DNA from: a virus
Length of the DNA stretch: 64,000 bases
Virus record (IMG/VR): IMGVR_UViG_3300045135_000898
Location: 1 to 64,000 of that record
Reading direction: 5' to 3' (one strand)
The notes beneath the pieces are model-generated. The model saw only the letters and a list, made by a program, of their open reading frames with translations, did no database searches and was not told where the DNA came from. The position numbers and the translations under genes were made by a program. Each line of letters opens with the position of its first letter. Within the stretch, counting starts at the first letter, position 1. Positions 1,376-2,553 of this stretch are shown in pieces.

Positions 1376-1542
1376 TAAAGCATCCTCATGCCTGTTTAAG
1401 AGCCGCAATCGTGCTCCCTCCTACTTCGCCTATAACGCTCAGACGGTCTATATCCACCACAGATATAATGACAACCGTGTAAGAGGTCGGTTAAACCTTA
1501 TGAGGTAGGCCGGTTGGTTAGACCATTTTACCAGATGCTTTA
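1376..1542 (-). ncRNA. Stem-closed RNA cassette G
   Basis: Minus strand TAAAGCATCT...GGATGCTTTA terminal helix (one U-G); internal ATGGTCTA/TAGACCGT stem. Confidence 0.5.
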
Positions 1543-1640
1543 TAAAACACACTAGACCGTGGCTGAGAGGCGGCCCCTTTATTCCGAAATCCTCGCCGTG
1601 GAGTCTAGAACACTTTCCACGCTTTACCTAGTGTGCTTTA
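1543..1640 (-). ncRNA. Stem-closed RNA cassette F
   Basis: Minus strand TAAAGCACACTAG...CTAGTGTGTTTTA 13-bp helix with one G-U. Confidence 0.6.
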
Positions 1641-1729
1641 GAATAGACTCTAGCGTGGCACCACCTCATCCTTCTGGACTCTGGGCTGACGTTCGATAAC
1701 GACCACATAGAGCTAAAGTCTATTCTAAA
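1637..1729 (-). ncRNA. Stem-closed RNA cassette E
   Basis: Minus strand TTTAGAATAGACTTTAGC...GCTAGAGTCTATTCTAAA 18-bp helix with one U-G. Confidence 0.65.
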
Positions 1730-1770
1730 GGCGGTTTTAGTTTTAAGACACAGACCGCAAACTGTTCCTT
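1730..1770 (-). ncRNA. Compact H-type pseudoknot 1
   Basis: AGGAACAG TTT GCGGT CTGTGTCTT AAAACTAAA ACCGC: stem 1 ACAG/CTGT (extendable), stem 2 GCGGT/ACCGC, A-rich loop 3. Confidence 0.5.
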
Positions 1771-1774
1771 AGCA

Positions 1775-1859
1775 TTTAGAAAGCACACTGGGGTCTGGGT
1801 CACGTCATGAGGGCATCGACCATCCTCCCTCGACTAATCACCGCAATGTGCTTTCTAAA
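1775..1859 (-). ncRNA. Stem-closed RNA cassette D
   Basis: Minus strand TTTAGAAAGCACATTG...CAGTGTGCTTTCTAAA 16-bp helix with one U-G. Confidence 0.65.
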
Positions 1860-1905
1860 GGTGAGGGTTTTACTATTTAACGACGGATAACCCACAACCA
1901 TGTCG
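1860..1905 (-). ncRNA. Compact H-type pseudoknot 2
   Basis: CGACATGG TT GTGGGTT AT CCGTCG TTAAATAGTAA AACCCTCAC: CGAC/GTCG stem, GGGTT/AACCC second stem, A-rich linker. Confidence 0.45.
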
Positions 1906-2066
1906 AACATAGGTTCTGTTAACAAGCATCTTCCGCTCTTCACCACGCTTAGTGGACAGAACCTCGGGTAACACCTTTACCGTCACGGACTTGACCTTGT
2001 TACAGGTAGTGCGTGCTCATCTTTCGATGTACCCTGGCACAATACACCGAATCCAAAAGGACCGGG

Positions 2067-2148
2067 AAAGGCACACTAGGGTCCATTTCGGGCTTGTTGA
2101 TGGAGTGACCTTGTTTGCTCCACGAACCTAATGTCCTAATGTGCTTTA
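2067..2148 (-). ncRNA. Stem-closed RNA cassette C
   Basis: Minus strand AAAGCACATTAGG...CCTAGTGTGCCTTT; GCACATTAGG/CCTAGTGTGC helix with one U-G. Confidence 0.55.
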
Positions 2149-2238
2149 GAATAAAGACGGTTCTGATGCCACCTACAGAACTGGCTTCCCAATTAAGGTA
2201 CACACCTTGGCATATATGTCTGCAATCTTTATTCTAAA
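2145..2238 (-). ncRNA. Stem-closed RNA cassette B
   Basis: Minus strand TTTAGAATAAAGAT...GTCTTTATTCTAAA helix; internal hairpins AAGGT/ACCTT and GTTCTG/CAGAAC. Confidence 0.6.
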
Positions 2239-2239
2239 T

Positions 2240-2315
2240 TGGAGCTGAGTACAGGATTCGAACCTGTGTATAATGGATTTGCAATCCAGTGCCTAACCTC
2301 TCGGACCAACTCAGC
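2240..2315 (-). tRNA. tRNA-Cys(GCA)
   Basis: GCTGAGT...TGGA TTGCAAA TCCA...ACAGG TTCGAAT CCTGT ACTCAGC T CCA. Confidence 0.92.
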
Positions 2316-2321
2316 TTAAAT

Positions 2322-2394
2322 TGGTCGGGGATTGGTCGGTAGTAGTCGCGACTCCAATACCTAGATGCATTTCGTCTTACATCTTTATCCCCGA
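2322..2394 (-). ncRNA. tRNA-sized RNA with acceptor-like stem and CCA end but no canonical D/T loops
   Basis: CGGGGAT...ATCCCCG A CCA with internal hairpin AGATGTA/TGCATCT; directly upstream of tRNA-Cys. Confidence 0.5.
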
Positions 2395-2404
2395 TAAACT
2401 TTAA

Positions 2405-2553
2405 TTTAGAAAGAACACTGTGTAGGATTTGAACCTACGAGCGGGATATCTCCCTATTTGGCTGCCGTATGTTTTACGAGGACTCGAACCTCCACCAGAC
2501 CATCTGGACGACGGAATCGAACCGTCTTACTCCCAATCAATGTTCTTTCTAAA
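2405..2553 (-). ncRNA. Stem-closed RNA cassette A carrying three tRNA T-arm hairpins
   Basis: TTTAGAAAGAACATTG...CAGTGTTCTTTCTAAA; inside GACGG-TTCGATT-CCGTC, GAGG-TTCGAGT-CCTC, GTAGG-TTCAAAT-CCTAC. Confidence 0.7.

Follow-up and report, generated by a model that had tools for sequence, protein, structure and literature searches.

Stem-closed RNA cassettes with conserved helices and exchangeable cargoes in the tRNA array of an uncultured T4-like phage

Seven RNA cassettes (A to G), each closed by a helix with related arms and each enclosing a different cargo, lie among the transfer RNA (tRNA) genes of an uncultured phage at positions 1376-2553 of the window, i.e. the 64,000 nucleotides (nt) analysed from IMG/VR record IMGVR_UViG_3300045135_000898 (positions 1 to 64,000). 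Selection maintains RNA pairs in the helices and in several of the cargoes on the transcribed (minus) strand, and the cargo RNAs of D, F and G have a conserved structure. Between related phages, cassettes come and go, are exchanged and change order, and the breaks fall at the arms or close to them. Extra stable RNAs in phage tRNA clusters have been recognised for 50 years; those of one marine T4-like lineage make up a large repertoire of exchangeable units built on a closing helix of a common kind. The seven closing helices proposed in an original prediction are all found on the minus strand:

Cassette A, 2405..2553, minus strand: closing helix of 16-18 base pairs (bp), type 1 flank with a AAAGAACA core
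Cassette B, 2145..2238, minus strand: type 1 helix of 13-14 bp (UUUAGAAUAAAGA), cloverleaf-like cargo
Cassette C, 2067..2148, minus strand: type 2 helix of 13 bp, AAAGCACAUUAGG / CCUAGUGUGCCUUU, with one bulge
Cassette D, 1775..1859, minus strand: 16-bp helix; the cargo is a hairpin with a loop-to-tail pseudoknot
Cassette E, 1637..1729, minus strand: type 1 helix of 18-19 bp
Cassette F, 1543..1640, minus strand: type 2 helix of 13-15 bp, three-way-junction cargo
Cassette G, 1376..1542, minus strand: closing helix of 10 bp

The arms, first described as one family, are indeed related but comprise two alternating subtypes. Type 1 arms (UUUAGAA-N4-C(A/U)UUG ... CAG(U/A)G-N4-UUCUAAA) occur in A, B, D and E, the four cassettes with TTTAGAA...TTCTAAA flanks, and their stems reach 16-21 bp. 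Type 2 arms (UAAAGCACAC... / ...GUGUGUUUUA) close C, F and, more loosely, G, with stems of 12-16 bp. Cassettes A and D join a type 1 flank to a type 2 core, and the AAAG(C/A)ACA core is present in four cassettes (A, C, D and F). The predicted compensatory difference between A and D (GAAC/GTTC versus GCAC/GTGC) is real, as is the abutting of neighbours, with UAAA common to E and F, to B and C, and to F and G. The cassette that comes after one of type 1 is typically of type 2 and shares UAAA with it (E with F and B with C; also in related loci L215, L217, L231 and L232). The transcribed island of 1506 nt has four helices of at least 12 bp, with at most two G-U pairs, no mismatch and a span of 45-200, while 100 dinucleotide shuffles average 0.19 and never exceed three. 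The minus-strand folding z-scores of A to G are -5.0, -3.6, -3.2, -4.7, -5.1, -2.4 and -1.5; only G is not significant by energy. Alternative pairings across cassettes also exist among the helices.

Pairing in the arms is maintained while their sequence changes. Among 27 distinct cassettes with UUUAGAA...UUCUAAA arms (15 loci), arm positions 1-7 are invariant and positions 8-13 are paired in 162/162 cells while sequence varies. Position 10 displays all four Watson-Crick types (A-U 2, C-G 5, G-C 13, U-A 7), and position 14 is a U-G wobble in 17/27 cassettes (C-G in 5, U-A in 2). Read in tRNA-gene orientation, this set has 28 G-U pairs for a single A-C opposition. A wider symmetric census of helices gives 65 G-U against 24 A-C (60 against 19 for unique arm pairs; binomial p = 4e-6), many of the A-C cases falling in outer extensions, bulge mis-register or cross-cassette pairings. 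The G-U reading lies on the tRNA strand in 10/10 true-family metagenome loci having called tRNAs and an informative stem (duplicates included; about 7 are distinct). Folding energy is uninformative on the strand because the plus strand folds nearly as well, and it is the G-U/A-C asymmetry that decides in favour of the transcribed strand, the one originally named. That the outer 7 bp never vary and the U-G wobble keeps recurring suggests that some factor reads the helix specifically; the conserved helix and its fixed wobble offer a candidate signal for processing or binding that can be tested.

Inside the helices, the seven window cargoes share no repeat beyond the arms and the four type 1 cargoes fall into four separate clusters, confirming their reported dissimilarity. 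Covariation in homologous loci, proposed as a check, is found both in the arms and in inner helices. For cassette D, seven homologues are seen and six are aligned. These six sequences keep the 16-bp closing helix, an 8-bp hairpin and a 4-bp loop-to-tail pseudoknot, which changes from GGUC:GACC to GGCC:GGCC. The structure has 28 pairs, with 99.4% of 168 cells paired and 9/28 pairs changed on both sides. None of 500 shuffles reaches the observed paired share or covariation score, one reaches the count of nine, and slid registers give no both-side changes at all. Cassette F also has 28 pairs, nine of them compensatory in seven aligned sequences, and one of its arms holds a variable insert of up to about 50 nt. 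In G, 19 of 28 pairs are compensatory across four sequences and the closing helix has a different sequence in each homologue. The unpaired motifs CUAACCA, CUGUGGUGG and CUCUUAAA are invariant in the four, though nearly every helix has changed sequence. Cassette A encloses three T-arm-like hairpins, one adjoining the 3' strand of the closing helix; such hairpins outside called tRNAs number seven in 13 loci, three of them in A and none in another cassette. Cassette B begins 1 nt past the CCA of tRNA-Cys.

Known RNA families and proteins do not explain the region. In an Rfam scan of the window, tRNA, with a cut-off of 29 bits, is the only matching family; no cassette is matched as tRNA even at E up to 10, and none is explained by a described family. 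Open reading frames (ORFs) 3013-3354 and 661-1002 bracket ~2 kb without a credible ORF. A conserved ORF across this region, which would have spoken for a coding function, is absent; the cargoes are ORF-free, and the longest minus-strand frame in the island (67 amino acids) spans module borders. The G+C content of the island is above that of its flanks, and Pfam searches with ten neighbouring ORFs give nothing relevant. D (with its pseudoknot), F, G and the widespread arm-less RNA R2, listed below, constitute new structured RNA families without an Rfam entry, several with strong covariation.

The stretch from 2690 to 1110 (minus strand) would form a single early-transcribed, protein-free RNA operon with two tRNAs and about a dozen structured RNA genes, the seven cassettes among them, an assignment held with moderate confidence as part of the whole explanation. 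The first segment list, correct for the seven cassettes, overlooked the non-cassette RNAs (R2, X, R3 and R1) and left the array gaps as spacers. The other features of the unit and of its upstream side are:

R1, 2760..3012, minus strand: structured non-coding RNA of ~250 nt upstream of the operon promoter, found in L205, L206 and L222 at 69-92% identity
Promoter, 2690..2718, minus strand: predicted sigma-70-like early promoter TTTACT-17-TATAAT, 10/12 consensus match
Leader, 2554..2689, minus strand: carries a small hairpin; kept in L206 and partly in L205
X, 2322..2394, minus strand: tRNA-sized RNA with an encoded ACCA and a perfect 7-bp acceptor-like stem, without D or T loop
tRNA-Cys (GCA), 2240..2315, minus strand: called by ARAGORN and Rfam
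R2, 1860..2066 (core about 1962-2042), minus strand: pseudoknotted RNA without family arms, conserved in L206-L209
Y, 1730..1774, minus strand: lies between D and E and forms a small hairpin whose loop is A-rich; L206 has an identical copy
R3, 1185..1375, minus strand: conserved RNA immediately before tRNA-Met; in relatives, the abiF motif occupies its 5' part
tRNA-Met (CAT), 1110..1184, minus strand: called by ARAGORN and Rfam, last gene of the unit

The early promoter announced upstream of the array is there as a 10/12 match at 2718-2690, but promoter-like sites are no commoner than in shuffles; promoter and leader are nearly identical in relative L206. The next minus-strand promoter after the unit is at 1062-1034, and no terminator-like minus-strand site lies between modules, apart from a weak one inside B. 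The two tRNAs are the sole tRNA calls of ARAGORN in the island and of Rfam in the window scan; X is called by neither program.

Comparison with related phages reveals a turnover of whole modules. Related arrays occur in uncultured phages (L206, L204/L205/L124, L207/L126, L209 and L208/L260), in 14 metagenome loci and in further IMG/VR loci, all on contigs that are fragments. Most metagenome and IMG/VR arrays lie within tRNA arrays, some with 18-23 tRNAs. Their cassettes are 1-9 nt from tRNA ends and always on the tRNA strand; tRNA-to-tRNA spacers are 4-6 nt long and A/U-rich. As anticipated, stems are conserved while cargoes vary, arm positions 8-13 pairing in all 27 type 1 cassettes around 19 unrelated cargo clusters. 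The repertoire amounts to at least 19 type 1 cargo groups, plus type 2 cassettes and several arm-less modules. The D cargo is found with three arm variants (AAAGCACA, AAUAGGCA and AAUAGACA). At the position of C, near-identical arms in L206 and L209 surround an unrelated 56-nt unit, and at that of E, similar arms in L206 hold a different cargo. Module order differs as well, being tRNA-like, D, F, G, R2 in L207; tRNA, R3, K, C', R2, D, G, R3' in L209; and R1, leader, F, I, J, R3-like, F2 in L205.

The window and L206 form a mosaic with breaks at or near the arms. They have in common R1, the promoter, the leader, tRNA-Cys, R2, D, Y, the E arm and R3b with tRNA-Met. L206 lacks A, X and G, with X lost jointly with cassette A, B and C are replaced there, as is the cargo of E; for F, BLAST blocks cover only the 5' end in L206 and alignment confirms the homologue. 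Similar junctions appear in metagenome contigs. In three runs from three studies, contigs join 1720 to 2230 via nine letters that E and B share in their 5' arms. G is skipped in one contig from run X2, where 1372 meets 1542, and A together with X in one from run X1, where 2322 meets 2556. Collectively, the modules behave as interchangeable units, with cargoes swapped, lost or reordered among relatives.

These relatives were reached via the topoisomerase gene, two cargo words and an arm pattern. The metagenome scan with the arm pattern yields 29 loci, 14 kept as true family and 15 dropped. Four of the dropped loci (L214, L219, L221 and L227) are full-length perfect hairpins; the other eleven (L213, L225, L226, L228, L230, L234, L235 and L238-L241) have 3-5 non-pairing positions of 16, or 2 in both orientations. 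The IMG/VR arm-pattern scan yields 12 loci, of which 10 are kept and two (L259 and L262) dropped. An arm-like helix in L121 lies inside a coding sequence and was hence dropped. Among 80 topoisomerase-gene loci, only L124, L126 and L127 share island sequence, L127 with promoter-like stretches only, and more distant topoisomerase loci (60-65% identity) show none of the family arms up to 10 kb away. Among cultured and GenBank phages, neither near nor distant DNA searches give a relative of the island, only tRNA-Cys in 4 records. The arm pattern finds two loci in one genome each of 185,579 prokaryote species, neither a family member, a scan of IMG/VR with a 15-nt arm motif gives single chance matches only, and the two flanking proteins used as queries return almost no relatives.

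The explanation considered best overall, and judged somewhat probable, is an RNA operon with stem-closed, exchangeable cassettes, in which the arms serve as clamp and as recombination homology and the cargoes as decoys. The closing helix would act as an elongated tRNA acceptor stem that insulates the fold of the module and brings its ends together. Host nucleases would cut the A/U-rich UUUA/UAAA joints, so that each module survives as a discrete, exonuclease-resistant small RNA; candidate activities are RNase E-type cuts, RNase P for the tRNAs and possibly RNase III on type 1 stems of 16-20 bp. Near-identical arms may in addition provide short DNA homologies for recombination between co-infecting phages, and cargoes would therefore be exchanged as units. 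The original view of a polycistronic cassette system is thus partly supported: RNA-level structures are present, they are interchangeable and neither an ORF nor Rfam accounts for them. Stem-closed RNA cassettes in phage tRNA arrays have no description found by keyword in the open-access literature, which is not proof of absence.

The cargoes, units of 50-130 nt that fold independently, may bind proteins, and their likeliest role is that of decoys for host proteins of defence or RNA metabolism. This reading by analogy is proposed because sister arrays carry the abiF antitoxin RNA, with no Abi_2 gene in the only such record searched. The abiF RNA (Rfam RF03085, a 37-nt two-helix hairpin with a CAAAUC internal loop and a cut-off of 37 bits) occurs in L209 at 3624-3655 on the sense strand, with 45.4 bits and 32/32 consensus positions. 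It exceeds the cut-off also in L215 (140-171, 45.0 bits), L232 (220-251, 45.0 bits) and L218 (713-744, 40.6 bits), and scores 33.8 bits, below the cut-off, in the L206 contig. The abiF RNA is reported to be an antitoxin that binds and neutralises the AbiF HEPN RNase (bioRxiv 10.1101/2025.04.15.648962; PMC12737573), and one abiF RNA is listed in a T4-like cyanophage (PMC9964418). In bacteria this RNA (also AbiFr or RCd22) lies upstream of the Abi_2/AbiF toxin gene, whereas no Abi_2 (PF07751) is present in the two phage records searched, namely the contig of the window (45% complete) and the L209 record (29% complete). Such an arrangement follows the logic of a phage-borne antitoxin mimic, and the abiF neighbour in sister arrays ties the array to RNA-based counter-defence. 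The pseudo-ToxI RNA is another phage RNA decoy. No cassette cargo matches any Rfam antitoxin family.

It is tempting to go further and to see in the arms a dedicated, portable adaptor that would do for RNA genes what the integron does for ORFs and would ensure isolated folding, excision, access to a stabilising factor and trade between phages, and would pool >20 anti-defence effectors; this extension is tentative and rather doubtful. A factor reading the outer 7 bp and the U-G wobble would then cut out and stabilise any enclosed RNA. If true, marine T4-like phages would keep a shared, fast-turning pool of >20 RNA effectors against host defences, and the arms, as a general adaptor for expression and exchange, would offer a natural RNA scaffold of practical use.

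Several observations weigh against the cassette-and-decoy explanation. RNA run X20, whose contigs come from relatives and may contain DNA, leaves each of A, B, D and E uncovered, and nothing is concluded from these holes. No known nuclease signature is recognisable in the arms, stems of type 2, at 12-16 bp, are short as RNase III substrates, and searches of the 45%-complete contig find no gene for RNase III or an RNA ligase. Window cargoes B, C and E have no homologue among the relatives found. The fold of G on its own is no better than that of shuffles (z -1.5), and the plus strand approaches the minus strand by energy (z -2.0 to -4.5). The alignments are shallow, with 4-7 sequences related by descent, and the counts are therefore not independent events. 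G-T wobbles are also tolerated in folded single-stranded DNA, and the asymmetry alone therefore leaves a DNA hairpin possible. Finally, the window has no abiF match at E up to 10, keeping only GAUGCCCAAAUCGC, half the motif, and the abiF module is an array neighbour and not a stem-closed cassette; for the cassettes, the decoy reading is therefore one of association only.

An unlikely alternative takes the cassettes for remnants of tRNA genes and inert spacers, with stems kept only for tRNA maturation or for blocking exonucleases and with cargoes that are themselves functionless. Their tRNA-like size and their location 1-9 nt from tRNAs agree with this, as do the three T-arm hairpins of A, a degenerate tRNA-Arg in L207 and the acceptor stem and CCA kept by X. 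However, no cargo other than A contains a T-arm, no cassette scores as tRNA at E up to 10, and folds unlike that of tRNA persist in D (9 compensatory pairs), F (9) and G (19), alongside conserved unpaired motifs.

The arms could instead be the terminal inverted repeats of DNA elements of the miniature inverted-repeat transposable element (MITE) or Correia type, or recombination hairpins of attC-like single-stranded DNA, any RNA structure being incidental. Inverted repeats with conserved ends, indels bounded by arms, arm-to-arm junctions in metagenomes, the 5-nt ATTTA repeat at both edges of the A+X indel and the tolerance of DNA hairpins for G-T wobbles would all suit such elements. Yet the 19 interior clusters are unrelated, while copies of a MITE or Correia element should share interiors, and these interiors keep compensatory changes and a pseudoknot that a passive element does not need. 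Moreover, the wobble-bearing strand is always the tRNA strand, neighbours overlap by 4 nt with no target duplications between them, no true arm copy exists in the genomes of 185,579 prokaryote species, and the arms lack a GTTRRRY core on direct reading. A DNA-level origin is accordingly considered rather improbable.

One promoter, with no terminator-like site between modules except the weak one in B, and abutting helices that share UAAA and could stack, with possible cross-cassette pairings, would also fit domains of one large ornate non-coding RNA whose domain stems are the closing helices. The GOLLD and ROOL RNAs are large, phage-borne and tRNA-adjacent. Such a single RNA is nevertheless very unlikely: modules are independently present, absent or reordered in relatives, real tRNAs stand between them, the window and 14 related loci have no GOLLD or ROOL covariance match, and D and F keep their structure in quite different neighbourhoods. 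Equally improbable is a role of the cargoes as small regulators that act by base pairing, or as cis elements for messages of the phage or the host, with a stem that only stabilises them. The invariant unpaired CUAACCA, CUGUGGUGG and CUCUUAAA of G could be seeds, and the early-promoter timing of the operon would fit. Against this, most cargo nucleotides are paired, and the 400 gammaproteobacterial genomes scored, of 401 sampled, match only tRNA-Cys (29 genomes) and a 21-nt T-arm (2 genomes), in a search for sense-strand similarity and not complementarity. This search for host mimics in genomes of one class says little.

Known systems resemble the stem-closed cassettes in part. In T4, RNA C and RNA D (species 1 and 2 RNAs, rnaC/rnaD) are likewise small stable RNAs beside tRNAs, on the same strand of a T4-type phage, but they are only two, have no shared arm family and show no known exchange of cargo. 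T4 rnaC ends in a T-arm and, after it, an acceptor-like strand paired to the 5' end of the RNA, a build found in cassette A only. The comparison with T4 made at the outset is therefore apt for A, with its T-arm next to the closing stem, but not for the other six cassettes, which lack a T-arm. In a blastn search of 1100-3000 against 50,697 phage records, only tRNA-Cys is matched, in 4 records, none of them T4.

PeSL (promoter-early stem-loop) cassettes of T4-type phages provide a second parallel. According to Arbiol et al. (2010), repeated motifs, short and conserved, flank variable modules that recombination between the motifs shuffles, deletes and replaces (PMC2839356). The arm-to-arm junctions and mosaic relatives seen here point the same way. 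PeSL elements are direct repeats of promoter and terminator that flank protein ORFs, whereas the present arms are promoter-free inverted repeats around non-coding cargo. No minus-strand promoter-like site lies in any arm, and one plus-strand 9/12 match (2207-2235) runs into the 5' arm of B.

Stalks processed by RNase III, in ribosomal RNA operons and T7 early transcripts, share with the cassettes a long helix made by cargo-flanking sequences in a polycistronic RNA; here, the helices measure 10-21 bp. The conserved U-G wobble and the A/U-rich outer half are not known to be RNase III determinants. Integron attC arrays also combine conserved imperfect inverted repeats with unrelated cargo that varies between close relatives. 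Integron cargoes are ORFs, whereas those described here are non-coding structured RNAs of 50-130 nt with folds conserved on the transcribed strand. The arms have no attC core sites by direct reading, and no integrase was seen, transposases and integrases not having been looked for systematically.

Other candidates were rejected. A type III antitoxin (ToxI-like) array needs tandem direct repeats, and the arms here are inverted and the cargoes unlike (a tandem-repeat finder was not run). Y RNA/Ro, permuted transfer-messenger RNA (tmRNA), RNase P RNA, signal recognition particle RNA, group I intron, self-cleaving ribozymes and preQ1 are all absent from the Rfam scan at E up to 10. For a retron, no reverse transcriptase was noticed among the scanned ORFs, with no dedicated search, and a CRISPR-like array is contradicted by 'spacers' that are conserved structured RNAs.

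Among the arm-less RNAs of the operon, R2 is the most widespread. Its core of ~80 nt contains a GNRA hairpin and a 22-nt invariant core, and belongs to no Rfam family. Five of the 21 predicted pairs are compensatory, and a further covarying 4-bp helix is seen by eye. R2 is also found, with an inserted hairpin, directly after the ribonucleotide-reductase gene in two unrelated phage contigs (L210 8150-8268 and L211 7131-7247). In RNA run X20 it has by far the highest summed depth, the sum being taken over contigs of many relatives. One contig joint of this run goes back, from 2131 to 1964, and may reflect a relative with another module order or a permuted RNA. The 3' part of R3 (about 1195-1285) is present in all relatives, duplicated in L209 and of high summed DNA depth in seawater runs.

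The window represents the first 64 kb of a viral contig that measures 81,970 bp (39.7% G+C; CheckV completeness 45%), and every large ORF in it is on the minus strand. The source is assigned to an uncultured T4-like phage because its family B DNA polymerase shares ~50% identity with the enzymes of T4-like cyanomyoviruses and 'Phage C48C1' and because T4-type topoisomerase, ribonucleotide-reductase and helicase genes are found on the contig. The DNA runs containing the array stretch are mostly seawater metagenomes.

Further RNAs were noticed in related arrays. In the 18-tRNA array of L231 (6934-9347), the larger gaps between tRNAs hold stem-closed RNAs of about 90-270 nt without family arms, one of which is homologous to R3 and has a variant abiF-like hairpin. 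A closing stem would therefore be a common trait of modules throughout these arrays, and the family with conserved arms one prolific subtype. In the 23-tRNA phage array of L233, ARAGORN calls a tRNA with a four-base anticodon (cagt) at 13683-13767 on the minus strand (Rfam tRNA, 39.5 bits), which may be of the frameshift-suppressor type. A distant relative (L131, 63% topoisomerase identity) has a permuted two-piece tmRNA at 3791-4249 beside its tRNAs. In the window itself, ORF 6178-6789 (minus strand), beside tRNA-Leu, gives nothing in Pfam hmmscan and a weak match of 14.4 bits (cut-off 26) to the Tpt1/KptA RNA 2'-phosphotransferase.

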